Below, piece after piece: positions 16,901 through 63,628 of a DNA stretch of 64,000 bases. Origin of the DNA: Lingula anatina (lineage: Eukaryota; Animalia; Brachiopoda); NCBI GenBank assembly GCA_051362555.1, contig CM120641.1:26232401-26296400 (forward strand), in the 5' to 3' direction. Position 1 is the stretch's first letter. Every line of letters starts with the position of its first letter. Under the pieces are notes generated by a model, which saw nothing but the letters and a program-made list of their open reading frames with translations, did no database searches and was not told the DNA's origin. A program made the translations under genes and the position numbers.

Positions 16901-19900
16901 ATTAAAAGAACACAACATACAAATTCCTTACTAATTTTCTAAAAGTGCTACCATCTTGATATAATACATGTCAACTACATAATCCTTTCCTTTACATTAA
17001 AAACAAAAATGTTTATTTTGTACAAGGAATTCCATGGCAACCAACACTGTTGGCATTACTTAAGTTGGATTGTAATGAGTCTGTTTAAAGTTGACAAACA
17101 ACACTTGCTGGAGTTGCGAGTCCTCACTGCAGATTCAATCCATGCACAACCGCCACTCTAAAACACATTTGTTGCCTCCAACAAGAAAAGAAAATCTCTT
17201 CAGTTTCATTTCCTTTTTCCCCCTTTTATATAAGATTCTCTGTACAAATTCCTTTAGGACCTTTACATGTTATTGTCTACTTTGAGAAATCTTGTAACAA
17301 AAGGCTCCTTGTCGCGCACACACCACGGAAGTCCATCAACTTAGTTCTGGCCGCGCTCTTCTAAAATGATGGTGGCTGTTGTCTGAGAGTGTGAGAGAGA
17401 AATACAAAATCACTTTGTGATCTTAAAGGAACAATGTGCTTAAACTTCATATCTTTTGCATTAGTTTTTACACATTCAGATCATATTAATTACGAATCTG
17501 ACAACTAAAATGCTCCATAAATTGATTTGGGTAATGGAACATCCTGGAGTCATCACAAAATCTACCCCGAAATATTTGCTCTTTTGGATGGCACAACCAA
17601 GCACGACATGTTCCGCAGTTTTCATATACTGTAGTAGTATATCGCGAGGAAATCTGTCCAGAAAATCATCCATGTTGACCGATCACCAGCATGTCCGCGA
17701 AAAATAAAACTTCCGTAAGTTTTTCCATTGTATAACACATACTCGGCACGATTGATCAGATTCGCGAAACGGCAAGTGCACACCCACTGGAGGATACAAG
17801 ATCGGGTTTGGAGATTTCAAAAAGTTGTCGTATCAAAATACATCAGACTTAGGCAGTGCTTAAAGCATTAAAACAAGTTTTAAACAAGAGAAAACCAGGA
17901 ACCGTTGTCTCTTGTTGAAACATTGTATTAATGACAAGTGCACCAATCTCCTTACCTTCTGTCATAATAAGCGTCATAATAGGGATCAGCCCTGAAAGAA
18001 CAGAAAAAAATAGATTTAGACATTAGATATATACCATATGAAATATTCCTGTTGATCTTAAGAATTATTATATTAGAAATGCATGAAATGGGATGGGTTT
18101 TATTGACCAGAAAATCCCAAAGAAAAGAATTGATGCAATCTAAATGTTGCATGTTTTTCTCCAATGCATGCACCCGTCAGAATGAATGATTGAACTTAAA
18201 CAACCAACACACAAAAATCTCTTTTAAATTATGACTTTATTGCCCTTACAACCAGCCATTAGTTTGGCTTGATTAGAGAAAGATTTTTTTATTGAGACAG
18301 AAAAAAAGTGGTGATACCTTCTCCCATAGTACTCAGGTGGGGGCCTGGCATATGGGTCTCTGTAGTAGTCTCTGGGAGGGGGAGGCAGAGGTCGTCTCCT
18401 TTCATATGGGTCATATGGTCTGTATCTGTCTCCATGTGGAGGGGGGTAATCTCTATAGTAAGGGTCTGGGTATGGGTCCCTGGGGTATGGTTCTCTGCCA
18501 TATGGTTCCCTGGCAGGGGGTCCCCCAAAACGCCTATCTCCTCCACCCCGCCCTCCTCCACGCCGACCTTGCGACCTGATAGATAATAAGAAAATTTCCT
18601 TACAGCACAACTAAACGGCCTATTTTACCTGAAAAAAAACTTTAGGAGAGGCATTTTATTGCCAGGAGATAACTACAAAATAAAAAGTTTTAACTCTTCT
18701 GCATTGGAAATTATTAGATCAATTTATACAGATATGCATTTTGCATAGGAAATAAGTTAACTACCCTCTAGGTGGCATTATGCTCTGAAATGTTTTAATT
18801 ACAAAAAATTTAACCAATACATTCTTTTTATTCAAGCATTTTTCAAATTACTCACCCTCCTCTAGGACAGTCTTTTGACCTAGAAAAACAGAAAAATACA
18901 TTTATTTCACCAATATTTTTATAATCAATAACAACCTGCACCCAAAATAATTTTGAACTGTACAACAATTAGTTTTAATCTCAAATTTCCTTTGCCAAAA
19001 GTGGCCATTCTTTTAAGCCTGCACAAACAGTACTGCACGCAGACAATCGATATTTTAATATTTCTACAAGCAACTTCTTTATGTATCAAATGAATAGTAT
19101 GGATGCTTTAAAAAAGGTGAAAGAACATGCAAAAGAACCTATGTCAATTAGAATGAGAGTGTGTCATATATTAATGAAGGGATTGTAGGAAAAAAGAAAA
19201 GAATGCAACAGTCCAATATTTAATATAATAAATGTTTACATTGCAAGCAACTGTGAATGCTGAAGAAAGTTCTCATAAGCAATTTACAACTTAACATCAT
19301 ATGACCACTCTCATTATGAAAAATAATAGTTTTAGTAAAGAAATTTCAACAAATAACAATAGCTCAACATAAGAGGATTATAACAGACTGATCAGGGTTT
19401 TTTTATGTCATCAATGTCAAAAATTCCGATCACATCTTCCAAACAGCATTCACGGACGAAGCGCCAATCACTTAAGATTTCGAATATTAATAGACTCTCG
19501 ATTCGTCCAGGTCATCAATCAAATTTCTTGACGTCAACTTTTCTAGAAAGAAATTCTTAACATTGGTGCATTCACTTAATGATGTACACAGACTTTTCTC
19601 AATGATAAAATTTATCCATTATTCAGAAAAATGGCATGTACATCACGTCCATGAAACAAATGCTATAAGAAATAAACAACGCAGTGCTTTTACGCGACCA
19701 AAGTCACGCGATTATGTAAATGGCTGCACGAGGAGTTCGGACTCCTTCAACTTACCAATGACCGTCTCGTCCGCATCTATAGCACTCGCCCTTCCCTCCC
19801 ATTCCAGGTTTCTGACGAACTTTACTGTGAGAAAGCTGAAATGCCAATCAGATCACGACATACGTTGATGCTACCAGCGAAGACTGCAATGATTCAGAGT

Positions 19901-25654: not shown

Positions 25655-27237
25655 CTGAAATACGTAGAACACATTCATTTCTGGTTGGACCCTTATAATG
25701 AAAATCTATTTTCGGTTGATATCCACACAAACAAAACACCTTCTTCCTGACCTCCACTCTGACAACTTATCTGTCGCTGTCCAGAAATAGCAAAAACGAG
25801 AACAAAATGTATGCAAAAGATGTATTTTTCTTACTGATTTGGTTGAAGCTAATTTACCTTTTAAGAAAAAGAAAACGGCTACAGGTGCATACTAGGATAA
25901 AAAACAAACATTCAATCAACAGATAATTCACATCTGCAATCGCTTCTGCCACTTAATCCCATATTCTAAATTGTACTATTAGAGAGTCACTAAACTAGCG
26001 TAGGCTACCTACTGAGGGAAAAAAAGTAAAATGCATTTAGGAGGATCCAGTGCATTTTGGTCTGGGTCGTGGCATTCCTCCAGAAATACACCAAATTCCG
26101 TATACCTCTTGATCTAAGTGCCATCTAGGAGGCTATATTACTACATTCAAAAATATTGGCAGTAAAAAACGAATCACAATTAATCGTAGCCAGCAATTTC
26201 AAAAGGGGTGTTCTTTTTTTTCTGAAAAAGTGTACCTTTTACAATGAATCCTTCGTAAACTTGGATCATATTTTACCCAGAGGGGACCTTTTCTTGGCAT
26301 AAAGGGGGGTTCTTTTGAGCCTACCATCTCCCCCCCCCCCTCCCCGGCTACGGGCCTGTATTAATTTACAGTGACTGCGCCTTGCAAAACTGGCATATAA
26401 ACAAATGTATTCAAATAAACCGCAAATCAGTTATTGTTTTTCCATCAATGATCTTGCTGCCAACTTCACAGTTATTTAGTTGTGTTGGTAGATTAATATC
26501 TATTCTACCGTAAACAGTCTTTTGAGACACATTTGGGTGCACGGTATGAGACATTCTTAGGCAAACCTACCATTGGCCATCTTTTTCTTTTCAAACGTGC
26601 ATCCCTCGACGGACTTAGGGCTATCAAGCAGTACATTCTAGGTGATTTTAGTAGTCAGTCTAGTTATAATAATGAAAGTTAAAATACGAGTATTTCTAAA
26701 AAGGTTATGCACTGGTGGGAGGTGAGAATAACAGAAGGGACGCCATGCAGGATTTAAGGGAGCGTGCGTAAAGGTGATCTAGTTGTCACAACTGCGCATG
26801 AAAAATTGCCAGTTGCAGTTAGATATTTCTTTGGAAATTCGCACATGTCGATGATATGAAAATCACCGCATGCATATGATATTAGAAGACAAGCACTTGA
26901 TCAAAAGGAACATACTTTGTATTTTAACCAGGTTTGTCATGTATGTTATCCTTTCCTTGTCAAGATTTTATAATGAAGTCTCAAACAGAACCTGACTTTA
27001 GGCTGTTTCCTCGTAACGCGTAGGTGCGTTCACTTTTTTACTAGATCTAAATAAATTATTGGCCCTTGATTGACAACTTTCTTGTCATTTATAAGGATCA
27101 GAACCAACTATTTAGAAAATTAACCCAGACTGGCATTAGAAAAAAAGACATGCACCACTCAGCGCCTACTTCAACATCTAGGTGCTGCTACTTTACCGCA
27201 TAGGCCTACTGCAAAATTTTCCTGCTCCCATGCACTG

Positions 27238-30200
27238 CTATTGAACGTCACCATACATGCGCCGGTCATTTCTCTGACCTGCAATTTGCACCATGGTCAT
27301 TCCCCACAATATGCTCCATATCCAGCCGACTATGATGATAGTGGTCGCCAGCTGGAGCAAGGCAGCCAGGAGGTTGTAGAAGAAGGCGAAAATCGGCTTG
27401 GAGGACCGGGTCTGACAGCCGCAGAAGACGGTGAAGGAAGAGATGAGAGTGCCTGGGAAAGAAACAAAACAGATGTCAGGGTGGATGGAATAGTTTGCTA
27501 CAGTGATCAATTAAAAGACCATTTGATATTTAGTGCTGCTTTTTGAAAGATTCGCTCCTCCTCAAATCAATCAATAAATGCCGTTATTCCTGCACATGCT
27601 TTACAAAAATGTTTCTTGGAGAACGAGTTTTACTCAAAAGAAAACTAATAATGCTTGGAAACATCCTAATTTTTTTTCATTTAAAGAATCTCGTTATCAT
27701 ACTTGACTTACAGCTAGGGTAAATAGTTTTTTTAGTTGCAAGCCAACTTTGATAATAGAAATAATACCCACCACTTTCTCAAAAGCCGGGGGATTTTGTT
27801 TGTATTGTTTTTGTACTGACTCAAAAATCAACCTCAAATAGAATTCTAACACAGTACTGCTACACGGATATTTATGGTATAACCAGCATTTTGCTTATTA
27901 TGATAATCCGGCTTTATGATAGCTTCTTGCTACCCACTACATGACCACAGATTGATCTTTCACTACATATTCACGAATAGGTCTCTGGTTAAATTGGCGG
28001 TCATTCTTTGTAGCCTACTCTGTTGCGTCAGAGAAAATGTCCACATAATAAAAACTGCGGCTCTGGTAGGTAATGCCGGAGTTTAGGATATCGCAATGAA
28101 AGGAGTTTGCTAACTGCTTTGACTGCCTCCTACCCCCACACCTTTTGGATCCACTTATGTTCTTATTCAGGATATTTATCATCTGATATAAATAACCTTT
28201 CTTTCATAATAACCAAGTAATAACCAGGTATTTTGCACGTTTATGTTAGTAAAAAGACACGTACGATCTCCTTTCACATTGCTTGTCCGTATCATAAAAA
28301 GGCGGGGAAGATTCCTATTAAAACGAAATGGAGAACAGTTGAAACTAGGTCTGTTTTCCTGTATCATGTGTTAGTATGGTCTTCCATGGATCATAGGGAG
28401 ACTGGTAAAGGGTGGGATACATGTGAATACCTGCATTCGACCTCGACAACATTCTACATCTTTTTTATTTATGGTTTCACTTGCTTTTCGTATTGTATTT
28501 ATGCTTACATAGATTTGTTCGACGTATGCAGCCACTCTAGTAAATCACAATGAATTATACATGGCACATGTGAGACGGAACTGCATTTATGAATACCACG
28601 TTTTAGCATCGAATGCTGTGCTTCAGCACTCCTTATATTAAGAGTCCTATATGCCAGTGCGTATACATATAGTTTTGTTTACAGTGAGGATATGTATTGC
28701 ACACATGTTGCATATACCGATATGCTAAATCTTACGTTCACTTTAATTCCTTTTGCATAACATGTAAATTTACATGTTCCTGTACCTTTACGTAGAATAT
28801 GAGTCTAACTCTAAGCAATGTTTTTTCAAGACTCACTTTATTGAAAAGAGGAACACGAGAATGGCAACATTTCAAACCTAGAACAAATACCTTACCTGTA
28901 TTTTTTTTTAAACCGAATACTTTCAGATACAAGAATGCACGTTTCTTAGAGATATTTCAACCCGTGGTATTTCCGCCTTCGTACATCAAACGAACGTCAA
29001 AACATACTTTTTTGTAGGCCCACATGTATGTAGTGAAATGGATTCATATAATCTCTGACTTAACGCTTCGGTTAATTTCTTTTATTTTAATTTTCATGTT
29101 TTGGTAGATAGTTCATGAAATATTTTATGCCGTGTACGGTTTGTGCATACTGTATGGCAGACGACAGAAAGTTTGCTTGTAAACAAATAATGTAAATTCA
29201 AACAAGCGGACACGTGCCCCTCCCTTAACATTTGAGGTATCCCCCCCTCACCCTCCCACACACACTCAAAAAGAAAGAAAGAAAAACGCATAACGAGCGA
29301 AACGGTACAGAAACCAAGCGATACCTCATCCAGACGCCCTACATAACACAGTGCAACTGTCCTCGTCTAGTTTTTATGTTTATTGATCGAGGCTAGTCTA
29401 GTTTTTTATGTGAGTGCCCCGGCTCATCCCCCCCCCCCTCCCTCTTCCCTTCAAAAATATCCTGAATCCACAAACGTTAAGGTAAACCGACAGATGATAC
29501 CAGTACCAAAAATATGTGATTTATGTTGCGATTTGGTCCCAGCATGTTATATTTTCAGGTGCTTAGAAGCAGCCGCGGATGATTGCTACAGTAAACCTGA
29601 GCGTGAAAGTAGTGGCCATTTCACTCAGTAGTAATATCCGACGAATATGATGTGGGAATGGAAAAGCAATTGCCTTGAGTGAATTCTGCATGATTATGGG
29701 CAAAGTTTAAGATAATTTTTAATGTTTACCCAACGTGATTTTATCGCCAGAAAATTGAGGCTGTACCTAAACATGTGCAAGATAAGTCACAGAAATAAAA
29801 AGCCACTTATCGACAGCTGCACCTATAATACTTAATGAAATGCACACAACTTAATGGCCTGGAAAACAGCAAATATTTATCAACGAAAGGTGATGCTGAT
29901 TAGATTTAGAGTATACTTAACCTGATTAAGAGAATTTGTGAGAGAGAAAAATTCATGCATTTGTTGATACGTGAGCAGGAATTGAGGTTCTACTCGTCGA
30001 CCGTTGGCAGAAATGCCATAAGGTGGTAGCCTAAATTATGGGAAAGGTAAATGCTTAATGTTACCCGCGAGGCAAGGTGAAACCATTATTGCAGACTGAA
30101 ATTTACGAATCGTTATTTTATATAGAAAAGCTCTGAAAGAACGGCATCAGTTCAAGTTTTAAAAATATGTCGTTATGCAAGCTAAATATATCCCACTTGT

Positions 30201-30721: not shown

Positions 30722-31216
30722 AAGTTACGCCCCTGACACCGGTTATATATTTCTTGGAAGGGCCATGTAAGTCGTTACGTAGACATCAAAATATGCTTCC
30801 TTTGCAAAAGTTAAAAGAAAAAAAAAGCAAGTCAGCTTTTCTTAAAAGTGTTAGTAAATGTGGTATATATAGAGTTACTTACCAATTCCAGGTGCCACGA
30901 CGTTTAGTATACACAGAATTATAGCTAATGGAAGAGGCATAGAAGGAATGGCACTTCTAAAAGGTCCTTGTTTTTCCTCAACTCGAAGAACTTCCAGTCT
31001 GCGCGCGTCACGTACTGGATTTGGCTGGGTTGCCTGTGCAGGAATCGACCCCCTGGAGGGCACTTGCTTTGTTTCATCACTTTTGGGGGTTTCTATGTTC
31101 ACCTTTTCCTCATCTTTTTTGACGGTTTCGGGTTCTGGTTTTGGTGAATTGTTCAACTCTGCGTTTTCATCGTCTGTTTCCGCTACTTGCACATCCAACT
31201 GGGCGACATCGGCCAT
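27238..31216 (-). CDS. Stum/SPEC3-family membrane protein, paralog A
   Basis: Exons 31216-30883 and 27452-27238 give AIPSMPLPLAIILCILNVVAPGIGTLISSF...LLQLATTIIIVGWIWSILWG, the SPEC3/Stum signature. Confidence 0.92.
30683..30717. repeat. (CA)n microsatellite
   Basis: Directly visible. Confidence 0.95.
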
Positions 31217-34007
31217 GTTTGCTCTTTAAAAATGACACACTACTAAAAGCAACTACAAGTTTTTTTTTGTGTGTGTTTTCACTCTTCCTGGAAAATCAAA
31301 ACACTCTGTTCAATTTTCGAATGGGCTGCAGCTCCAACAACTTGAATTATTGAATAAGTTGTCTTTTAAAACGAATTTGGCCAATCCGAAAGATATTCCG
31401 TATTTTGTGTTTTTAATTGAAGCAAGCCTCCGTTGTGTCGAGGTTCCAAGTCTCATTTCATATCTTTTCTCCGTTGCTTTCTCCTCTCTGAACACTGCAG
31501 TGTGAGCTTTCCCCTGGTCGTCAAGAGAGGTTCGTTAATTACCACACGATCTCTTGATCACACAACCATATCCTCACAATTCTCCTTTCTTGTTGTAAAA
31601 ACAGTGCTCTTTTCTCAAGATTTTAAACTTTTGAAAGAGTCAACTTTCCTATGACTGGCGGGTTATCAGCGATAGAGCTGCTAATCTAGCCAGGTGAGCC
31701 CAGGTAAAGCGCCGTGTGTTTCGCGTCCGCTTAACGCTTCCTTTCTCGCTGAAATCTCCCGAAATGCTGGGGAGTATAAATATGTTTGACGGCGCAAAGC
31801 CCTAATAAATCAGACTCTAGGAAATCCCAGCAGGTACGGCGGTGAGCTGAAAGATGAAAAAACACTCGATCTCTTTGAACATAAATACTGCAACTCTGAC
31901 TACATTCAAAGAATCAGTTACATTCAATTAGCTTGGACAGTATGCACTATTGACAGAACGGCGTTGTCTCTCTGTCGTTGTTTATGCTGAGCTAGTAGAC
32001 GCTAGCTTATAGTTCAAGGAATTTTGCCGAGTGCCTCGCACTAAACGATTTGCCAGGTGAGGTTTTTAAATAGATACGCTGCGGTTGCTCTAAATACCCC
32101 TAATACAGTAACGGTGTGAGTGAGGCTCAATACACCGTGCGAAGAACGCAAATATTTGCCGAAGTCCTCTTTAACGAGCTATCATCGAAAAAAAGTTTCC
32201 CAGGGGTTTGAGTAACAAGAGTTATACTTTACGGATACAATTTATTTGACATTTGAAATATTCACTGAAGATATGTAACACTGAAAATTGTATTATTTAA
32301 CTTCATTTACTCCAATTTCACCCTAGTCCCCTTCTCATCCTGTGTAGCCTGAACATCTCAAGCACCTGTGTGTGTGTGTTGAGCGTAATATTTAACTGCG
32401 GCAGACAGCTCATCCACATTAATCGAAGCCAAGATTTGGTGATTGCCTCGTGCAATACGAGAAGACTTGATCCAGGTGTAAAACGTTTCGTTGGTTGATA
32501 TGCATGCGATTCTGGTTAAGTAAATGTTTTCCGATTGGGTCATGCTATTGCAAATTTTATATTTTAAAGCTATTAATCATAAAGAGTTATTCCTAGGTTA
32601 ACGTTAAAATACATGTATGATTTTGTTTTCTTCAATTTATATATAATATCATTCCATAGAATTATTTAAGCTCATCCAAGTCTATAATAAATATATATTA
32701 GAAGGAGGGGGGGGGGGGGGGACAGATACCTTTAAATCTGAACCGAAAACCTCGTTACTCGTGAACATCCAAACATCATCAATCCGTGAAACCTAGGGCT
32801 TGTTTTGTGGGTCCTGGATGAAATGTAAGACTTAAGCCTTGGCATTTTGCCAACTACTCCGCAAACAGGGCCACGTATACTTGTCACTTGTGAAATGGCG
32901 TTAATGCTAAGTCAATTTGATTCCATAATGGTTTTTTTTCAAACAAGAACTGAAAAAAACATTACTGCCTTCCATAATTATTTTAGCTGTTGTTTGGAGA
33001 AAGTATTATTGTAACTTTGTGCGTGAAACAGCTTATGAAATTCTTTGTTGGACATTTTAATTCAATTTTCATTTTAGCTCTCGTTATTGCAATTTAAAAA
33101 AAAAAAAAACCCGTCCGTTAAACATGTATGAAGTGGAGAAGTGCGGCTGCTGTATTTTCAAATTGCGATAGGTGAGAAGAATGAACACAATAAAGAGCCA
33201 GTGGGATCGTCAAAGTACTGGGCAAAAATGATGCCTTTCCATCCGATCTGTTTGTGACTTTTCATGAAATTTTTGTTTTTGTTAAAATTTAATTGAATCA
33301 GTTAATGAAAGACGCCAATCATATTTATTTAAGTATGTTCACTATTTGACAAGCCTTTCCCTTTTTTCTGTATTTTATGAGGGTATTCAACCGTAAAAGA
33401 TTAAAAACAAAATGCTGAATACGTGGTTTTCAGTTCCACCGACCCTTTCGGTCCTTTCACTTGAAATCCCGACTCCCATATTGGCTTCTACTGCATACAA
33501 TGCACCCACTGCATGCTCAAAAGAGACTATAGTACACGTTTTACTTTCAAATTTAATAAATTTTATGCACTCTTTCAGGGTTGAGTATTTAATCAAATAT
33601 AAAGAAAAGCAGATAAAACATAATAACCCCCCCCCCAAATAAATAAATAAAAATAAAAAGAACAACTGTGCACTTGGAGTAATGCCTTTAAAATGTTTTT
33701 GAATCTTTTCGTTTGCTGCACAATAAACATGATTATTATTAGTCTCACATTATTGCAGCTAATATAAATTGAAATAAATATATGTCAGATACGCATAAAA
33801 TGAATTCTTATTTCAGTGAAATTTAAAAGTGATATCCACCCACTTTTTCGAGTATATCGGCCTTCAGCTTTGGAGTATACATGTACCTTAAATACCGATA
33901 TTTTTCATCCTCTCAGTAATGCATTGTTTTTTTTTCACAGTGCTTCACACGATTTACTGTCTGTTTATATACAGGACACAGTGACGTAAGTAGACAAATA
34001 GTTACCA

Positions 34008-37000
34008 CTACGTCATCGTGGCATTTCCATGAATAACAATCCCCTCTAGTCTTTCCGGACTGATCAAATAGTTTGAAATTTGTTCCGCGCTCTGCCCACG
34101 AAGAAGTCTTTGGTGACGAACGCTGTTTGGGTTAAAATTAGGAATAGTTCTAGTGTTTGTTTTGTCGACTGGCTGCACGATGATGGGCGCTTCTTGCAGT
34201 ACTATTATAGGTGCTGTTTGAGAACGTGGCACACCATCCGATCTGCTCCTATCTGCTGCGGGGACTGTTAGAGCTGGCAGCGCAGTGGCCTCTCTTGCTG
34301 GAGAGGCGACAGAGGGGGACAATGTTGCCTCGGGTATATTTCTTGTTTCTCCGTTTTGCAGTTCTTTTTTCTCTCCCGAATCTTTGCCCGTTTCGTCGTC
34401 AGTCGACGCATAGTAATATTCATCTAAAAAGAACAGTTTTAACTACAATTTGATTTATAATTACTTACATGACATTTTAAACATCACTACGTCATAAAAG
34501 AATCAAAATATAATAGGAAAAGAGAGGTGTAAATAACAAAGCAGAAAAAGACTTTTGAAGATTCCTTTGTCTATAGCTACTTATATTTATCTGGTCTTAC
34601 CAGCTAATGTTTCATCTGCTTGCAGAATTTTCAGAAGTCTATTACAATATCATAGCGAATGAAACTGTTTTAGAAAGGTAACCAGTTTAATTTAAATTGA
34701 TCAAACATTAGAGAAAATGATAACGAAAAAGGATGGCAAACTCCCACGTGGAGTGCCTAGTGGTGGCGTCGAGAACGATTGAAATTACTCCAAACTTTCC
34801 TGGAGGTGAAACCCTGCAAATTTGGAATGAATTTTTATAAACCCTTTTACCCAACCGTAAGGTGGGACGATATGAATTTCGGAGGTACTCGACCGTGCGG
34901 CGAGGCAGCGGGAGCGCCCATATCATAGAAGTGTGCGAGAAACGGGACACTTTCTGGACAGATCTGCCGAATCAACAGCGATCAATGTTCAGACGTGTCA
35001 CCTGGACACACGCCTCCGTGTAAACAGGCCGAATTCCGCTGTATATGTAGCATGTGTATAAATGCACGCGGTCGATATGGTTTTATAATGCAAGTGTCAG
35101 AGCATAAGGGTTATTATTTCTTTATACGGTATTTAACATGATGTCTAAATATTTTCAATATTAAAGGTATGTCAGTCTGTGCCTTAAAATAAGCCAAATA
35201 ATGTACATGATTAATGAATTTTTTATCTCTATCTTCATATCTGCATGAACACGTGCTCCAGTGTGCATGCACTGGTGCTGCCATCTGTAGCTAGATGTAA
35301 ACAGCAATGTACCGGTATATTTATATTGCACCAATGCGTGCTCGTGCTGCGGTTGTTTTAGGTAAATAAAATGAAACAAAAGCAGGCAGTTGTCAACTTA
35401 AAACATTATACATCAGCAGCACGTTTTTAAACGATTAAATTAGTCTACACATTATGCTTTTAAGGAAAAATTGATTTTGACTGTTAATTATAACGTACTG
35501 ATATGTAATTTATAATGTAAGCCTATTAAGATTATCTTTTGTTTGAGCGGTTAATAATTTTCAATCGCAAAGTAGTGATAAACGAATAAAGGACATTCAA
35601 AAGTGTGGCCTCTTAAGGACTTGGTGCGTGATGTCAAATTTCAATATATGTTCTTACTAATGAATATCGGGATATCAACGTAAAAACATGGTGTTTTGAT
35701 ACAGAATATTCGCCCCTATGCTTTGATTGATAGATCAGTCATTTCAGAACACAGTTTTTAAAAACGAAAGAAAAATACAAAACGCTATACAGGTAGGTCT
35801 ACACGCATGCATATTGCTCAGCATTTAGCATGTAAAACTAGATAGTGGTATGGATATAATGCATACTATTTTTGAACTGATACATGGATTTGGTCCTTTC
35901 AGGTTATGTTGCCAGATGTTTAAGGCGAATCTCATCATATATCACATTTGTTTGGGAATCCTAATAACCTATGCGCACAAATATATACCGAGGAACTAGA
36001 TCTAGTCTAAAAAGAAATCATTCGTGAACAGCAATTCGTAATTTAACGGGTCTGTTGATAAATAAAAAAGGTTTTGAGGGATTCATCATGGCTTGGTGAG
36101 CACAGGCATCACATTAAATCAAGAACGTGCCTTTTGCAGCATGCGTGCGCAGTGTGGATATTTTTTAAAATATCAAATTTATTTCATCTTTCATTATTTT
36201 CCAATTTTTTTTTTCAATTTTACATAATTATTTATTAATAATTATCGAAACTTACTTGAAATTGATATAAAAGCTATGCCCCATATGATGCTCCATATCC
36301 AGCCTAACAGCAGCAAGAAAGTGGTGCAGCACTGAAGCACAGCCACCCAGGTATTAATCCAGACAACTTGCAGCTTGGCGGTGCCTTCAGGTCTGGGTCG
36401 GGAGCAGCAAAGGGCAGTCAAACCCGAGATGAAAGTACCTAGATTAATAATAATAATGTAGCGTTAGGGGTCTGATGGTTCAAAGCTGGATTCAAAATTA
36501 TCCAGAAGTAAATGTTTTTTTTTATAAAGAATAGCTTACCTCAAAATGAATAAGTAAATAAAATTTAAAGAAAAAGAAGAAATTAATTCACGATAAAAAT
36601 AATTTACGACTGTTGTTTAGTAATCGATGAACATTGTCCTAAATTATAATTTGAGATTTTTGGAAAAAGTTTAATAACCGGTTGTGAGCAGAATAAAGAG
36701 GGGGGTGGGTGGGGGCATGGGGAGAGGCTTCCGGCGTCCACAATCATTGAAAAGTCTCATTCGCTATTATGTACGCACGCAGTTGCAATTCTTGGAAAAA
36801 ATAAATATTCGATTATTTGCTCTGCTTCTTCGAACACAAATTTGAATTCTCTGCATACCATCTTCACGTTTATAATACAAGTTCAGTTCAAAAGTTTTCA
36901 ATTTTTCACTGCTTCTGTCCAAAAAAAGAAAGAAAGAAACGTGATCCATACCTGCTAGGATATTAACACGGAGACTTTCAAAAGACTAGGAAACGTTGAG

Positions 37001-37585
37001 GATATAACTAGTTTAATCTAAATGGGCATTTGAATCGATCGAGTCTGAAATATGGGACAACTCCATAATATGATGAGATGTCATGCAATAGCGTGTTATC
37101 CGTATGAAATAATAATAAGTTTGAACCAAAGTCAATATCAGATACCATTTTCACTGGGGTGCTGGGGGGTGGGGGGGGGGGGGGGGGGGGCAAAGGCCTA
37201 TTTTATACTGTTCTACAATATCTAACCTACCTAGGCCGGGGGAGAGGATATTGCATATAAGACAAGCTATGGCAACTGGCCTGCTCATAGCAGGTATAGA
37301 ATCTCTCAAATTCGTCTCTGCCGATGAGCCGGTATGATGCTGCTGCTGCTGCACGGTCAAAGACCCTCGTGCAGTGGCGGGCTGGTGTGACGCTGTCGCG
37401 AAATAGCCTGGCATGACCGGGCGACTGTACCCTTTCACCGACGGCTGTGGGGAAGAAGAGGGGGAGTTGGTGCACCCGTGGTGGTGTGGCTGCGAGGAGG
37501 TTATGTGTCGTTTGGGTAACGGCGAAGGCGGGTGTGGCGGTCGACGCATTGGTGACGGCGAGGCGGCGCTATATATGGCCTGCAT
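34008..37585 (-). CDS. Stum/SPEC3-family membrane protein, paralog B, about 317 aa
   Basis: Exons 37585-37231, 36438-36256 and 34423-34008 join in frame: SIPAMSRPVAIACLICNILSPGLGTFISG...VAVLQCCTTFLLLLGWIWSIIWG, then a long low-complexity C-terminal tail. Confidence 0.9.
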
Positions 37586-39053
37586 TTTGACAGCTCACCT
37601 GGAAATAAGCATTAAAACAATCGGTTGACGTTTGTGGGCAGAGAGCTGTGTACCGTGTTTTATGCCAATGAGAATTCGACGAGGTGTGTTTATATTGATC
37701 ATAAATTCATTTTGTATTACCCAAAGAGGTAATCGCTTGATAAAAAATATCACAAGAAACAGTGCTGAGACTGAGAGCAAGAGGTGACCCCCCCCCCCCA
37801 AAAGAAATTGTTTAGCCGGACACTATTGACCTTTAAGAAATTACGTGCCCTCTACCAAGTGGCAGAACATACAGTTAACTACATTGCATGACGTGTTTCC
37901 AACTTTTCCGTGACCTTAACAGAACTCTGGCCTTCCCGAAGCTGGGTTAAACTTAACAACAAAGTAATTAAGCACCGCGGTATGCCTTATTTCTTAGGGT
38001 ATATATATGTTCTGAATTAATTTTCACCCATTAGAAAAACGTACCATAGGCTCTAGCTTAACAGGTAATAACTCCAGCAATTAGGGACTACTCCAAGATC
38101 AAACAGAAGTACAGATGTAATTATTGCTGGTGTTATCAAAATGTATGTCTTGCACACATTTATTTCAGCTCAAATAACTTGAAAGTAGTTTTTGAAGCAG
38201 TCGTCATCGATCGCGTGTTCTGGGTGATCTCCTCCTAAATTTAATATCTACAACACGCTCTATCTCTCTGTGGGTAATCTTATATATCAATCAATTACAA
38301 TTCGCATCAATATGACATTGCCAAATATTATCCACCAGAGATAGAAACAAAGACATGCCCATATCACATTCGGTCTGAATTTCGCTACAAGAAAACTAAC
38401 GTTATGAGAATATCTTCTCAAAATAAATAAATAAAATAAATAAATAAATAATAGATGAATAAAAACGTGTGTTCACACGCTATGGTGCGGCCGTTTGGAG
38501 AATGTATTCAGAGGAGTCTTTTGTCTATTTTCGCTGGCTGGAAATTAAAAATAGACCCAAATCGGTCTTGGTTAAAATTTATGTCTGAAAGTATTTTCAC
38601 AATAATGAACGTAGTGACATCTTTGGTTCTGACATGTAACGTGCAGTCATTGATTTTGATGCCAGGTTCTCTTCTCATTTCTCTACAACCATAACAGAAC
38701 GATTTGAGAATAAAAATGGAGTGTGATGTTCGCGAAAGTTGACATCAGCAAATACTTACAATTATGTTCACAACTGAACAGTGAAATATTCTGCAAAATG
38801 TTTGTCTTGTTGCAATCGTGAAAAGAGAGCAGACATTAAGTAACATAAAAACCCATGCCGTAAAGTCAAGATCATAACACAACCAGAAACCCAAAAGAAT
38901 AACAACTGTTCATTTTGGCCAAAAATGAATTTTCCTGTGATAAACGACAAATTTCCATACTTACCAATGGTTAATGAATCCATTCCTACATTCAAAGTCA
39001 GTCACTGTTTTTTTTTTCCTATTTTTGATTTCACATAGTCCAATGACAAGCAC

Positions 39054-41917: not shown

Positions 41918-42941
41918 TGTTATTCTCCACTAAAACATATGTACACAGTGTTTCAGCTTTGTTTCTGAGTTTGTCATGTTTAAAGATTCCTCGCCATGCA
42001 AAGGTTGTAGCGATACAAGGGGTGAATCCAGGATTATTTGAAGGGGCGATCCGTGGATGCGAAGCCCCCCCCCCCCCCCCCACGCCCCCCCCCCCCAGGG
42101 TATTGGTATTTTAGAGGGTGAACGGTGTCATTTGGTACGGTTTACAACTATGATTCTGCTAGTCAAAATTCTAATAATTCAAGAGGGGGTCTCTTTGGTG
42201 TAGGTTTTTTTTCAGTAATCGAAGGGGGGGGTCAGGACCCCCCTGTCAACCCCCCCTTAATTCGCCACTGTAAAGATGCTTGGTTCTGCCTTGGACGAAA
42301 TTCGTCCAACATACTGCCAAGTGTCTACAATTCTAGAATTCACGTTTCGATCTTTATGTCTCTTACCAAAGTCATTTTGCGAAATCCGTTATGTTTTTCC
42401 GTTACTAAATATAAACATGGGTGGACAACATTAAAGAACGGACCAATCGAAACGAGAGACATGACAGTCAACCTAGGCCTGCTGAGAGTGGATGGCACGA
42501 AATAATGACGATGATGATGATGATGAAGAAGATAACAAAACGTTCATTTTCGAGTCAATAACCAGTTATAGCTTGTGTATTTCGTCGTATACATATTGTT
42601 CCACAACCCGAGTTCATTTTCTCTTTTCATCTCCTTTTTTTTTTTTTTTTTTTTTTTTACTGTTCAATTATTAACTTGCATATTATGTTTAATGTCATTT
42701 TATTGCCAAGTTCTGTCAGCTTTAGTTTTTCGGTCTATAGTTTTTCACCGCCAGGCGATCGATATATTAATAACCCATCTTTTATATATTTCTCACTGCG
42801 GCTTTCGTGATGCAAGGGAGATTATAGTGCAAATTAATTTGACTTTAAAATACGGAACAAGTTCGTGATCTATGCACATTGTATCTTTGAACATGGCATT
42901 TTTATCTGTCTTCATACTAGCTGCTGATAAAACAAACTCAC

Positions 42942-53176: not shown

Positions 53177-54837
53177 CAGGGTTACCACTTAATATGGAAT
53201 ATTTTTTATCATTGTTATTTTTGAGTGCTGATTAATTTTTTTTTGGCTTGAGTCATTAAAAAAGTATGTCACTGATTGATAATAACATCCAGTCTTCTGT
53301 TGTGAGATATTTTGGTCAATAATATTAAATCTGACATAAGATGCCATTCAAAAGAAAGGAACACCCCCAGAAAACCATATCAACAGTTTGATGTCAGTAT
53401 AAACTTTAAGCTAAGATATTAAAGAAAATGATAGCCTCCGGACAGTGATATGTTACACAGTCAAAGAACTCACTACAGTAAATCATGAAAAGTCAGTAAT
53501 TGCGGGTATGACCTCCAGCAGCCGCTTGCAGCGCCTTCATCCTACATGGCATATCCTGTGGCACGTTTTTTAAGAGTTTGGGTGGAGATATCATTCCACG
53601 CAGTGATATTTGCCTGTCGCAGTTCATCACTATTTACCGGCCGAGGACCATAGCTATTAATTCTGTGAGTTACTTCCGCCCACAAATTTTCAATTGGGTT
53701 CATATCTGGAGAGTTTGCAGGCCAGGGCAGTTGCTGAACCCATTGGTTTTGAAGAAAAACGGTGATTCTGTGGCCTCGATGTGGGGTTGCGCAGTCGTCT
53801 TGGTACACAAAGTTGTTCCTGAAGATGAATCTTACCAATCGAAGCACTGTTTGCTGTAGAATGTCTCTGTAGGAATCCTGGATGAGGTTGCCTCCTAGAA
53901 AAACCAACTGGTTCTGGGTACCGACATGAAATGCTCCCCAAACAGAGACGTTACCATCCCCTCCTTTCACCCTAGGCAGTACATAATCATTGTTTTATGC
54001 TCCTCGTACACGTCGGTGGACACGGATTCGACGATCAACCCTAAAAAATCCATATCTGGCCTTATCACTGAAAACAACGTGATTCCAGTGTTTTGGCTGC
54101 AAACGCACGTGGTCCCCAACCCTTTGCAGACGTCGCTGTATATGACCTGATGTTAACAGTGGTTTCCCTACTGGCCTTCGTGCAAAATAACCGGCTTGCA
54201 GAAATATCTTGTTCACGTGGGACCTTGAAACGGGCGTTTGAATGACATTCTGCCTCTCTTTTCTGAGGACACTGGTTGTCTTTGTACGACCAGCACGGCG
54301 TCCACTAAGGAGAAAGCGATCCTGTCTTCTTGGTGTGATACGCGGACACCCTGGTCGAGGTATTGGAGTAGGTGCCCCTGTAGCAGCATTTCTTTGGAGG
54401 ACTTCACAAACGGTTCCTGATAAATGTTGAATTACCTGGCAATGGCTGTCCGTTTCTGGCCATTTTCTCTGAGAGCAAGAATCCCATAGTACGCTGCGTT
54501 GCTTTGCTGTCGTACCATATCTTCACTAAGGTACCTGTCAAGTTTCAGAGCGATCCCTTTGTTGCTTCTCTAAACACGCCCCAAAGATTGACCAAACCCA
54601 TGCGTTTTTATACAAGGGCAGAAATTGCCGAAAAGACCACCCCTCACATTTCTGACCACAGAACATGCAACTGCATGCATCAATTGTTTCGAGAGTTGTG
54701 TGGTAATTAGGTAACACATCTGGCTACACATGGAGTGACACCTCAGCTTTGGATTTAATGTACTTTGAGAGAAATTAAATATTTTGTAGAAAATTTATTC
54801 GCCAAAAAATAATATTCCATATTAAGTGGTAACCCTG
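53177..54837 (-). mobile_element. Tc1/mariner DNA transposon, 1661 bp, both ends intact
   Basis: Perfect 27-bp TIRs cagggttaccacttaatatggaatatt (53177-53203 and 54811-54837), with TA on both flanks. Confidence 0.96.
53542..54518 (-). pseudogene. Disrupted Tc1-like DDE transposase
   Basis: Motifs WNHVVFSD, VYQDDCATPH and WPANSPDMNPIENLW are split across separate ORFs. There is an in-frame TAA after MVRQQSNAAYYGILALRENGQKRTAIAR. Confidence 0.92.
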
Positions 54838-57819: not shown

Positions 57820-59388
57820 TAAAAAAAAAACGACCAGCTGATAAGAAGAAATAGAAGTTGAATAAAATGATAGACAAGGATCTGCATTAAAGATTAAGAA
57901 GCATTTAAGGTGAACGTGGGTATGATCCGTCATTCAGGCTCAATTGACACGTTAATCACAATGTTATCGGGCACTCATTGTAAATCTTTTTAATAGTCGA
58001 TTGAATGTTGATGAAACTTGTTATCAGCCATTTGTTAAGAAGTAGGTGAAAACGGCGACATATTTGCCTACTCATAAGAATTAATACCGCAGTGTCATCA
58101 TTGAGTACATTTTTTCAGAAAGAAAAAAGAACATTTCGTATCGACCGCATTCGTCATTTATTTTCATGAATACACTAGATCGGTCTATTCAATGAAAAAC
58201 GATCCCAGTGACATACTGAGCATACGATTAGTCTTTTTATCTTTTTTCAATGAACTTTATGGTTGAATGCACTCCAGGAAACCAATGTATAGATTAAAAC
58301 GTGAAGTAAGCGGAATGCTGTCTATCCGAGCATTTAGCACGTTCTTGCTAATACTCGCAGAACTGGCACAACTCACATATCAGAATATAGTCTGGAAATA
58401 TGGATTGCGCTCCATATTCAAGTTGGTAGTCATAGAAAATGAATGTCAAGTTTACCACATGCATGCATGTGTTGAAGCAATAGGCAAACCCAAGTTCTTT
58501 TTCCGGTATTCAAGTGAAGGACTTATGCATAACGTATTTATTAAGGTGTCTAGTAGGCCTACATGAAGAGAGTTTTAGATTTTTCATTTTGAGACGTATG
58601 GAATAATAGTCTCGTGTAACAAAATCGACTTTACAAAGCTTCATACGACAGCAAATTTAGCAGTCGATTTGTGCCTGTCTAAACTGTCATGCTGATGAAT
58701 GAAACTATGTCTGAAGGATTATAAATTAACAACATTTTCTGGGGTTTTCTTTAATCGATATTCAATGAAAATATGTGTGCGAAGGACTGCACAATAACAA
58801 CATTACAACATTTTCTAGCGTCTTCTAAAGTCAATAGTCAATGGTGTACACGAAGGATTACACATGAACAATATTCTCCAGGGTTTTCGATAGTTGACAG
58901 TCAACTTATTGACGAGGAACAGTGAAGTATCTCGACCTGTTAAGCAACCAAGAGGCGTCAGTGCAAGGAAATTTTAACAATTACTAAAAATTATATATAT
59001 AGTACATGTAACTTAAATGTTGAAAAATCCGTTTGTTTAACTTTCGCTATATGTGTAAAACAAACATTCAGATTCGTTATATCATCTTTATTGAAACTAT
59101 ACTCTACGGCTAAATTAAAGATTTTATTTTCAAAAGCAAACAACAACGTATACAGATGTCCATACAATGTGGTATATAGCCTAAAACATGATTTTGACAA
59201 ATTATGCGGTTTCGTAATATCTGGTCAGTTTGCCCCAACTTTTATGTGGCTGAAGACCTTCATGTGTTCATGTTGGCTTTGAGACAGTTATGACTTTTGT
59301 ACATCTCTGTTTTTTTTTTTTTTTTTGTTTTTTTTTTTTCATTTTTTAATAAATAGGCTACCGGAGCTTTCCAGGAACTGCCGCACCG

Positions 59389-60376
59389 TTACCTAAAAAC
59401 AAGGTTTACAATCAATTACTAGATATCTACTTCCCACATATTTAAGATTACAATATTCTATAAAAAAAAAATCGGTCTCTAAAGAAATATTAAAATTAAG
59501 CTTTGTCAGTCACAAATTAACTAATGGGCAACTGCTTATTTTGTAAATAAAACGATGAGAAAGAAGAAGATAACTTTGGAACTTACTCAGAAGGAGAACC
59601 TTCGGTCTTCACGCATTGTGGACAGTTCTCCGTGCAAGGCTACAATGTTATGAAGAAGAAAAAAATAACTGAGAAAGACTTTATGATTATACACAATTCC
59701 TGTATGACCCATTTCCCATAAAAACCAGAAAACTAGGACGCCATGCAAAAGTAAAGTGAAATACTACAAACTTAACAAGACGTGCAACATGTTATATATA
59801 AACTTATACAACGAGTATGGGTTATGTACGTAGATTAAAAACAAGCACTAAAACTTGTCAACTGCTGAATTTCACTTCCTATTATTTAATGACATAATGC
59901 CTCTATTGGCTCAGTAGCTTTTGGCACATCACTGTGATCCTCTAGAACAAAGTGTCAACTTCTCTTGCCGGGATATATTCTATGTTTTTTTTTAATAAAA
60001 ATTGGCCTTGGTGAAAATTCTATTAACAGGGCTGAGCAGACCGCGAGACGAGCGAGAATATGTCCATAAATGCAGCGAATAAAAAAACATGCCACAAAGC
60101 AATCAATACATCAGATAAAAAATATTTATTTAAAAAAAAACTATAGTGCTAACAAAATACTTTGCTTTTAATCGATGCCTATACAGCATGCAGTCCATGC
60201 CTCTTACCTCCTAGTGACAGTGATGGGAGTGATGATGGTCATGTGCAGCAGTCTTTGTTGCAGAAGTAAAATAAATTTATATTTCACAAACCAGCGTCTG
60301 TTAAGGTATTTTAGTTCAAAAGTCTGTCATACTGGTTTCTAGACAGTTGTAAGGAAAAAAACTGGTGGTCACACAC

Positions 60377-60432
<56 letters not shown>

Positions 60433-61375
60433 ACAAAGGGCTCAGTCATCACCGAAGTCATGAAACCTCACCTTTCCATCCTTACAGCAGTCCTTTCCAG
60501 CGCAATTGGCACACTCTGGTTTACAGCAGCAATTAGCAGTGGTACATGAAGGGCAAGACTCCTTGCAGGCCTGGAATATCAGAGCGTACTCTCTTTGTAA
60601 AACAAACTAAATCACAGCTTTACATTTGAAGAATGAGTTTTGAATTCAAGTATTTGGCAATTATTACTGAGTTGGTTTGGTCTCTCGATTTCCCTCTGAA
60701 ACGCAAGTGAGAGTGAATGAAGAGCAGTTCAATGGGAAAGAATAAAGATAACAAAAAAAAAAAAAAAAATCGGATTATCAAATTAAGCAAAACAATAATT
60801 TAATACGAAATATGTGACCTGTAGATAATTCAGTGGGTGGGGTGGGGTGAGTGGGGTGGGATGGAGAAGAACGAACCCCATCTCCTGCCCCCCCCCCCCC
60901 GCCTTTATCTATCCGCTGCTTCTCTCTTTCTTTCTCTCTCTCTCATATAAATACTGTCTCACCTCTCCCTCGGTAGTACAGCATTCCTTGTCCTTGCATT
61001 CACAGCACTGACACTTTGGGCACTTGCAGCCCTCATCGCACGTGGCCTTCCTGAAATCAGCAAATGTGGTAGTTGAGACACGTGCACAGCTGTGGAATGA
61101 AAATTAACACAACCCAGCAGATCATTTGGGGATAGTTAATTTTTCCATCTTACTTGCAACAAGCGCTCTCTAATTTGAGCATTATGTATTGCGTAACATT
61201 TTGATTAGTTTTGAGCAGAAATAATTAAATTAGCAAAATGCAGATCTCCGATTTCTTCAAGTCAGATAGCATCTGCTGTTCACTAAAAGGTCCAACAAGC
61301 TTTTAGCTCGACAATGCAGCTCATTCACTCGACTTACGCGCCGGTGCATTTTCCACAGCATTGAACATCTGCCAT
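59389..61375 (-). CDS. Metallothionein-like Cys-rich protein (93 aa, 25 Cys, no aromatic residues)
   Basis: GT-AG exons 61375-61338, 61050-60963, 60570-60472, 59639-59587 and 59392-59389 join in frame: MADVQCCGKCTGAKATCDEGCKCPKCQCCECKDKECCTTEGEACKESCPSCTTANCCCKPECANCAGKDCCKDGKPCTENCPQCVKTEGSPSE*. Start context is AAAATGG. Confidence 0.88.
60208..60252 (-). CDS. 45-nt cassette exon encoding a His-rich tail TAAHDHHHSHHCH*
   Basis: U-rich tract then aag acceptor, strong donor GAG|gtaaga, phase 0-0, in frame with the upstream Cys-rich exon. Confidence 0.72.
60370..60435. repeat. (CT)n(CA)n compound microsatellite in a metallothionein-like gene intron
   Basis: Directly visible; reads (UG)n(AG)n in the pre-mRNA. 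Confidence 0.95.
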
Positions 61376-61521
61376 TTTGAGTCTGAAAAAAATGAGCATA
61401 CTGATAAGCATGATGTTAAGGCTACACGTTCATGACAAATAAAGCATTACTTGAAACGGACGATTAAACGGACTGTGTATAAAATTATCAATAAATTTTG
61501 TAACTAAAACTGCTACTCTTA

Positions 61522-61596: not shown

Positions 61597-63628
61597 GTTT
61601 TCTTCGCCCCATCAGTGGAATACAGCCCAGTTCTTTCCTGTCCTTTCCTCAATGTTCAAGTCTGATGTTCTCTGTCTTTAAATTTGCATTGTATAGACTA
61701 CGGAGGCCAACCGTCTTCCCCCCCCCCCCCCCCTTCCTCCTCTAAACTTTTAGTTTTCTTGTTTGAAGGTTAAATTTTAATTGATAATATTAAAACAGAA
61801 ATAATATACTATGAAGTCGATTTTCAGTGAAATCAGGAATTTATCCCGTTAAGTGGTATTATATACTGGGAAGTGTCTTAACATACGTGCATGATAACAA
61901 TTAAGGACAGAACTGCAAGAAAAAAATGGCGATGAGACTACTTTTAACCTTTATCCATAACGCTCATAATGAATATTTGTCGTTTGTTTGGCAAACTAGA
62001 AAACGCACGTTCAAGAGGGCATTGGGCCACTTGCCAAAGCGCAACGTAATTTTCCATTCAAACGAGTTGAAGATTAACCCAATTGCTGCGGTTTATCGTA
62101 TGATTATTCTTTATAAATGAATGATTGTGGATTGTAACGCGTCAAATGATAGCGCTTTTTATTGGCGTAATGATAGCAGTTGATAACCTAATTGATTTTT
62201 GCAACTTTAATACTTTGTGACTAGGAAGCGCGAGCGTACGCACGTGCGGGAGTACAGCTACGTGCCAAGAGCCACATGACTGTTGTTGACTTACTCAACG
62301 TTACTGAGACTCTTTGCCGAATTTTACTCCCACTAAAGCCGTGAATTATTTTAGTGTACAATGCAGCGCCACAACACTGAGAAGGAACAGTTTTAATGCC
62401 AACCATAGAATTGGTGTAACAGTCCTGTCAACACTCGAGATCACGTCGGGGGTCTCGTGACCTCCCGACTCAGACCAAAAATCTCCCGATCTATCAGACT
62501 TTTCTTTCCTGTCGTTAGAACGGCTGGTGACATTATTAAAAACCGTGCCGTTACATTATCGTCTTCTTAGTTTCATTGATGGAGGGTAGTGATTGCAGTA
62601 AACAATAAGGAGGAAATGTAAAGACAAAACCACGTAGGGTCCATCCGGAACACTATGTATGTTAATTCTTAACACGCCTCCTCCTGACCCTATACCAGGG
62701 TCACAGTTTGATTTTTCAATAGATATTCACAGATATGTCTCTGTTTAAATGAATGGCTGATCTCTGTAATGTTTGTGGATCTTTCTTTCTTCCTTTTATT
62801 ATGATTATTTTATTTTATTTTATTTTTTTGGGGGGAGGGGGCAATTTCTATTGTGAGTGGATAGTCAACACGTGAAGTGCCAAATAAAAAAAAGAATACA
62901 ATAGCAATTTCCATGCCAAATTATCAGAAACATCTCGTAACAATTTCCTGCGTGAAAAATCAATAAAGTTTATTAATGGATCTTCAGCAGACAGCATACT
63001 GCATAAACAGGCTTACGTAGATCTGCTTCATATAGATGCACAAACATGTATCTTTCTTCGTTAAAAAGTTTTTTCGCTTTATCATATCAAGAAATATGTA
63101 ATTTTGTCTCATTTATTCTTCCCTCCTATCGTTGCTTTCTTCTCGAAGTTTGGCCGTCTTGCTACATATAATGTGCTTTCTAATGATTAAATAACGTTCC
63201 AATCTTATAAGCACGGCAGCAATAGAAACACGACCTCAAAGGAGACAGCGCTTCATCAATAATTAATACGAAAGATGGTGCAATCGTCTTTTAACGTCTA
63301 TGATAAACAACACGAGCGTGTGAATGTACAAATTTCCAATTTTCTCGTGAAAATAAGAGTTATTTTGATCTGGATAACATGAAATCTTATTCTATATTTT
63401 TTCAATTCAATACTGAATGATTGCCCTCACTTACCTTATCTCTCGTATTTCAGTGTAACTTGGAGCCTAGCTATGTAGCTGGTAGACGTGGAGGACGCTG
63501 TTAAACTCAGCAGGCTGTTGCGTTTTGTTAATTTTATACGACTTTGCACACGAGACACTGACTACCGCCCGCAAACGTCAGGCACGAGACTCGGTTTATC
63601 TAAGGAAACGGTATTTAGACAATTTTGT

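Follow-up and report, generated by a model that had tools for sequence, protein, structure and literature searches.

A standing question is how metallothioneins (MTs) distinguish zinc, an essential metal, from cadmium, a toxic one, and how such selectivity evolves. Gene duplication is the route on record, as in the MTL-1/MTL-2 pair of Caenorhabditis elegans, which divides Zn homeostasis from Cd detoxification (PMC11134313, PMC4101491). The C-terminal extension of MTL-1 provides a zinc-specific His3Cys site, and Cd prefers thiolates (PMC11134313). The MT splicing described so far changes the number of domains or the untranslated region (UTR), according to the sources cited in the last section. 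A histidine tail is present in the poly-cysteine and histidine-tailed protein of Trichinella, Ts-PCHTP, which binds Fe, Ni and Zn (PMC2954182).

The gene described here lies in a stretch of 64,000 nucleotides of DNA from the brachiopod Lingula anatina, which was analysed as a whole and is referred to as the window. It is one gene with two abundant mRNAs, which encode the same core of 22 Cys followed by a tail with either three Cys or seven His. We consider it fairly probable that these mRNAs yield two metallothionein-type proteins, and that the His-bearing form, as predicted, has one or two additional sites that prefer zinc and disfavour Cd.

Gene structure and splicing of the cassette exon

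Splice signals, RNA junctions and translation define a minus-strand gene of seven exons within the window (all its exon coordinates refer to that strand). Exon 0 (63435-63510, with an approximate 5' end) belongs to the 5' UTR, and is joined to exon 1 by the joint 63435>61382 in 4/4 runs. Exon 1 (61338-61382), established from read joints and translation, contains the ATG at 61375 and three Cys codons. It is followed by two Cys-rich exons with 36% identity to each other (alignment A1): exon 2 (60963-61050; nine Cys; acceptor joint and read depth) and exon 3 (60472-60570; ten Cys, in two Cx3Cx2Cx4CC units; donor joints and motif). For the junction between exons 2 and 3, the evidence consists of splice signals, reading frame and the depth of reads, as the junction table has no rows beside repeats. 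An in-frame acceptor at 61089, which would extend exon 2 upstream by 13 residues (61089-61051, minus strand), was rejected, as no joint to it was listed in the six expressing runs.

The cassette exon (60208-60252) has 45 nt and is in phase 0. It comprises 13 codons (7 His, 1 Cys and 1 Asp among them), the stop TAG at 60213-60211 and then GAG, and its translation up to the stop is TAAHDHHHSHHCH. The acceptor, ...CAACAAAG|, is of the AAG type, YAG being the commoner acceptor, and the donor is GAG|GTAAGA. Exon 4 (59587-59639, 53 nt; junctions and motif) encodes a truncated third Cx3Cx2C unit with three Cys when the cassette is skipped, and is 3' UTR when it is included. Over its first 27 nt it agrees with the beginning of exon 3 at 16/27 positions; therefore, what the protein loses on inclusion of the cassette is an incomplete repeat. 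Exon 5 (59090-59392, with an approximate 3' end), connected by the joint 59587>59392 in 6/6 expressing runs, completes the final codon of the skip form with a single base, supplies its stop TAA, and continues as 3' UTR with AATAAA signals at 59128 and 59092 (minus strand). The 194-nt intron 59586-59393, which interrupts the final codon of the skip form, was seen in read junctions of all six expressing runs; together with the 5' UTR exon ending at 63435, also seen as a read junction, it is an addition to the original prediction.

Upstream of exon 0, a TATA box-like TATAAAA is located at 63532-63538 (minus strand), and in three of four runs the read coverage stops in the bin below. A single putative metal-response element (MRE), matching the consensus TGCRCNC, lies at 63545-63551 (plus strand), 6 nt upstream of the TATA box; one such match within 100 nt has a chance probability of ~0.06, and ~490 nt of upstream sequence fall within the window. 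Metal-inducible expression through MREs is common among MTs, although it is not universal.

Other features were observed in the window. At 62687-62752, in the first intron, many RNA reads map in both directions with diverse loose ends, the pattern of a dispersed repeat that is present in numerous transcripts. An exon of a gene for the RNA-binding protein lark/RBM4 occupies 18224-18610 (minus strand), and its part 18290-18580 is 100% identical to L. anatina lark, with 70% of the query aligned; by this match, the window belongs to L. anatina or a very close relative. At least two exons, at 30875-31225 and 37151-37594 (both minus strand), match Pfam Spec3 (PF15795) weakly (E 1e-4 and 2.5e-5, below the curated cut-off), and ORFs near 27124-27546 and 34008-34442 resemble these exons, which suggests a tandem cluster of Spec3/stum-like genes. 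Two adjacent ORFs at 53542-54522 (minus strand) read like what we take to be a broken Tc1/mariner transposase.

RNA runs were chosen by species label; eight of nine were used (X3 was left out), and 6-30% of each run's size was read. The gene was expressed in six of the eight (X4-X9). No exonic reads of it were found in X1 and X2, which come from one study and have ~12 million records each, and expression therefore appears to be restricted by tissue, stage or condition. Summed over the six expressing runs, 129 reads cross the upstream inclusion junction 60472>60252, 95 the downstream inclusion junction 60208>59639 and 87 the skip junction 60472>59639, all with GT..AG ends. In the same order, the counts are 6/5/5 in X4, 0/3/4 in X5, 15/8/1 in X6, 26/24/28 in X7, 36/21/29 in X8 and 46/34/20 in X9. 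Both isoforms were thus read in each of the six runs, with a pooled inclusion of 0.56 and a range of 0.27-0.94 depending on estimator and run, and in the stranded runs (X4-X6) nearly all first mates lie on the plus strand, as expected of minus-strand RNA. The 45-nt exon is real, abundant and alternatively spliced; a mere coincidence of splice sites is ruled out by the junction reads. The original prediction, made from the sequence alone, had placed this exon with its splice signals between the Cys-rich exons, and named the three junctions as the reads to look for. All three occur, and the exon coordinates, phases and translations stand as given.

Inclusion differs among the runs when counted at the shared donor (chi-square p=0.001, or 0.011 on distinct starts), and not significantly when counted at the shared acceptor (p=0.06, or 0.20 on distinct starts); for X6 versus X5, the corresponding values are p=0.001 and p=0.11. 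On small junction counts, in which mates may be counted twice, these differences suggest that inclusion is regulated. Upstream inclusion reads outnumber downstream ones (129 versus 95), so that in a minority of transcripts the cassette may serve as the last exon. An AATAAA is present at 60130 (minus strand), 78 nt below the cassette donor. As the main fate of the cassette, a terminal exon ending through this signal was rejected, the bin depth in X5, X6 and X7 being that of the 45-nt exon alone; the excess of depth in X4, X8 and X9 would allow such use to a minor extent.

In the inclusion form, 56 nt separate the stop codon from the exon 4-exon 5 junction downstream of it. Therefore, a possibility absent from the earlier reading has to be considered, namely that the cassette is a poison exon, whose inclusion marks the mRNA for nonsense-mediated decay and so adjusts how much of the 93-aa protein is made; the His run would then be a by-product of a cluster of splicing-regulator sites (YCAY). 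The distance just exceeds the 50-55 nt beyond which a stop upstream of a junction is expected to trigger decay, and the skip form, whose stop is downstream of intron 59586-59393, has no such junction beyond it. However, the margin is narrow and the rule was formulated for mammals (PMC3325483), and the 3' UTR grows only from ~284 to 344 nt. Isoforms with premature stops are mostly of low abundance (PMC3325483), whereas at the shared acceptor 42-89% of the steady-state reads belong to the inclusion form, which is not depleted (pooled 0.56 as above); this high share argues against efficient decay. As to the regulator sites, the six YCAY motifs within the 45 nt place the exon in the top 0.06% of 45-nt windows and amount to the cluster in or near an exon that is expected of Nova/Pasilla targets. 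Such a cluster arises automatically, however, because His-His codons create YCAY, and by itself it does not require seven of the eight CAY triplets to be in coding phase, as they are in the cassette. On these grounds, we regard the poison-exon explanation as unlikely, and think it more probable that both mRNAs are translated.

Lineages among the runs and the histidine codons

Runs X7-X9 carry fixed differences from the window, which among the variants listed affect at least 20 of the 218 3' UTR bases (~9%), and, although filed under the one species label, they seem to represent a separate Lingula lineage. Amino-acid-changing variants among the runs were observed at 61338 (Ala/Val, at the exon 1-2 junction), 59630-59632, 59605 and 60506, several of them in exon 4; none of the variants listed alters a Cys of the core.

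The lineage-fixed variants of X7-X9 include 60475 and 60478, beside the exon 3 donor, and 59630 and 59631, beside the exon 4 acceptor. They are present in all reads of both isoforms, and therefore no distinguishable paralogue explains the two forms. One could still imagine that one allele, or a near-identical copy, always includes the exon while another always skips it, so that the difference would be allelic or paralogous and splicing not regulated. An inclusion near 0.5 in X4, X7 and X8 is what such an arrangement would give. Against it, both forms occur in all six expressing runs and in two lineages, inclusion reaches 0.67 in X9 and 0.92 in X6, and in X7-X9 no variant listed at either junction separates the isoforms. 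It is hard to reconcile these data with two fixed alleles or copies, and we attach very little weight to this alternative; both mRNAs are products of a single gene.

A run of His codons with usable splice sites is rare in this DNA. Among 125 pseudo-exons of 30-80 nt flanked by AG and GTRAG in the window, only the cassette encodes more than three His, and stretches with at least six His in ten codons occur at only two places in the six frames of the 64 kb. In the lineage of X7-X9, a single one of the 45 cassette nucleotides differs among the variants listed, compared with 20 of 218 in the 3' UTR. This change replaces the tail Cys with Ser, so that the Cys of the tail is not kept, while all seven His codons are; X4 has one synonymous His change in the cassette. 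Exons 1-3, with 7 changes in 225 positions in the divergent lineage, are close to the cassette in this respect, and exon 4 has 4 in 53. The conservation of the cassette is not significant (Fisher p=0.09), and the absence of any change in the 21 His-codon bases has a chance probability of 0.13; it is compatible with selection on His, and suggestive of it. The original prediction was to be given up if no reads included the exon and if the His frame were not conserved in relatives. Reads do include it, and on the second point the persistence of the His frame in a Lingula lineage ~9% divergent in its 3' UTR is suggestive evidence in its favour.

The same data bear on a near-neutral origin, by which the cassette is an exonised (CAY)n microsatellite that just truncates a dispensable partial repeat, both products acting as the same MT and the His tail being unselected. 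The cassette is indeed a degenerate CAT/CAC run (7/10 triplets), another (CAT)n run, intronic or intergenic, exists at 42534, and a trinucleotide run falls in the His frame one time in three. Exon 4 is a repeat that is truncated and changes faster, and the conservation of the cassette reaches only the p value given above. Nevertheless, with about one such run per 64 kb, its presence in frame and with a strong donor in a gene of metal-binding type is unlikely a priori, and we put this at ~0.002 before splice sites are considered. In addition, about half inclusion is found in both lineages, whose UTRs differ by 9%, and no change of run length was listed in any of the runs. An unselected microsatellite seems to us an improbable explanation, and in what follows the His tail is treated as a potential ligand set of its own.

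The encoded proteins and their predicted metal binding

The two proteins share a core of 75 aa with 22 Cys. The skip form has 93 aa with 25 Cys and no His, its tail adding three Cys; the inclusion form has 88 aa with 23 Cys and 7 His, its tail adding all seven His, within the last ten residues, and one Cys. These translations agree with those of the original prediction, which had presented the cassette as swapping the Cys tail of an MT for a poly-His tail, and had proposed that a splicing switch could change metal-ligand chemistry within one gene. The switch exists and changes the set of potential ligands at the C-terminus, but the swap is smaller than announced: 22 of the 25 Cys are shared, and only a truncated repeat with three Cys is exchanged.

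In MTs, aromatic residues are absent or rare, and His is typically rare. Both Lingula proteins lack Phe, Trp and Tyr, as well as Leu and Ile, and the skip form, which has no His, conforms to the usual rule, to which the seven His of the inclusion form are an exception. The Cys content is 26.9% and 26.1% in the skip and inclusion forms, respectively, arranged in the CC, CxC and CxxC motifs of MTs, and the masses of 9.7 and 9.3 kDa are within the limit of about 10 kDa by which MTs are defined as small proteins (PMC1808422). As in the cytosolic MTs, there is no hydrophobic leader: among the first 30 aa, no 11-residue stretch exceeds a hydropathy of 0.31 (by a simple scan, not a signal-peptide predictor). 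A secreted disulphide peptide was rejected for want of a leader.

None of ten published Cys-spacing motifs matches the protein (mollusc alpha, beta1-3, gamma and delta, vertebrate alpha, echinoderm alpha, cephalochordate 9C and appendicularian 12C). Pfam returned no family for pieces of 29-42 aa taken from exons 2 and 3, and the PDB no match for single exons. No homologue was found with exon 3 plus 7 intron-encoded residues among proteins of 71-2000 aa, with phmmer and exon 3 among 1.84 billion representatives (0 at E<=0.001), or with alignment A1 among proteins of 22-74 aa. These blanks are weak, because the queries were Cys-rich single exons of 29-42 aa and not the spliced protein. The MT label therefore rests on composition. 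Composition and size, together with the TATA box and one MRE consensus, fit a metallothionein, and the gene is likely metallothionein-like.

It could be objected that the missing matches in Pfam and among the ten MT domain motifs point to some other small Cys-rich protein, structural or disulphide-bonded, with a His tail used for metal cross-linking or mineral binding. Yet MT families lack mutual homology (bioRxiv 10.1101/2025.01.04.631296), and the database blanks concern pieces of 29-42 aa only; moreover, the protein is of MT size, has no leader or aromatic residues and carries CC, CxC and CxxC motifs accompanied by Lys, and its gene has an MRE beside the TATA box. We therefore think a non-MT function very unlikely. 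As an MT, the gene would be a brachiopod one with a Cys pattern unlike those ten published motifs.

If the proteins are of metallothionein type, the core would be expected, from its composition, to form thiolate clusters; other MTs are reported to use 2.5-3 Cys per ion (bioRxiv 10.1101/2025.01.04.631296), and at this ratio the core would take up ~7-9 divalent ions. By analogy with MTL-1 of C. elegans, the His tail probably adds one or two looser and more selective N-donor sites preferring Zn (Cu and Ni are also plausible), at the cost of two to three thiolates. The inclusion form would then be a housekeeping or exchange form, and the skip form an all-thiolate storage or detoxification form. 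His does not bind automatically, however: neither His of amphioxus BfMT1 binds Zn (PMC3419175), and in MTL-1 the His at the terminus stays free (PMC11134313).

Because the His-His codons make a cluster of six YCAY in the exon, a Nova/Pasilla-type protein might regulate the ratio of the two forms, which is the weakest step of this proposal; Nova/Pasilla sites within exons accompany skipping (PMC3165201). Tentatively, one may go further and picture a regulated switch, in which a brachiopod gene with its own type of Cys domain toggles between an all-thiolate sink for Cd and Cu and a natural His-tag form that sorts Zn or passes it on, with tissue or metal status setting the ratio and the His codons doubling as a YCAY control element; this possibility we hold with clear reserve. 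The two natural isoforms have an identical 22-Cys core and differ only in the tail, so that they offer a controlled comparison of His with Cys ligands that needs no engineering. When metals are applied, the response can be followed simply by measuring the ratio of exon inclusion.

Comparison with described systems

The original prediction knew of no described example of such a switch. MT alternative splicing as such is described, in amphioxus MT2, Tetrahymena MTT5 and rice OsMT1a2, and to that extent the event has precedents. A splice-controlled exchange of a Cys tail for a His tail was not found in the literature searched, nor was a dedicated paper on a Lingula or brachiopod MT (subscription journals and supplements were outside the scope of the search); three 8-residue motifs gave no match in a literature text search.

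Like the Lingula gene, MTT5 (PMC1808422) and OsMT1a2 (PMC3491035) give alternatively spliced MT transcripts. However, the MTT5 event is the retention of an intron in the 3' UTR and is non-coding, and the passages cited mention a His tail for neither gene. In amphioxus MT2-L/MT2-S, a cassette exon is spliced within the MT coding region, an event that is conserved among species (PMC8476144, PMC3419175). There, skipping of exon 2 alters the number of 9-Cys domains, and hence capacity, and not the type of ligand as in Lingula; the amphioxus 9-Cys motif has no match in the Lingula protein.

Ts-PCHTP resembles the inclusion form in combining Cys-rich domains with a natural C-terminal tail of seven His (PMC2954182). 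However, it is a secreted protein of 48 kDa with a signal peptide, its tail is constitutive and encoded in the last exon, and it is not an MT (PMC2954182). The Lingula protein has neither the signal peptide nor the two long poly-cysteine domains that characterize the PCHTP family.

The likeness to MTL-1 and MTL-2 is one of design: these also consist of a Cys core with or without a short His-bearing extension at the C-terminus (PMC11134313, PMC4101491). MTL-1 and MTL-2 are two paralogous genes, whereas the Lingula forms come from one spliced gene; and MTL-1 gains two His and one Cys, whereas in Lingula seven His and one Cys replace three Cys.
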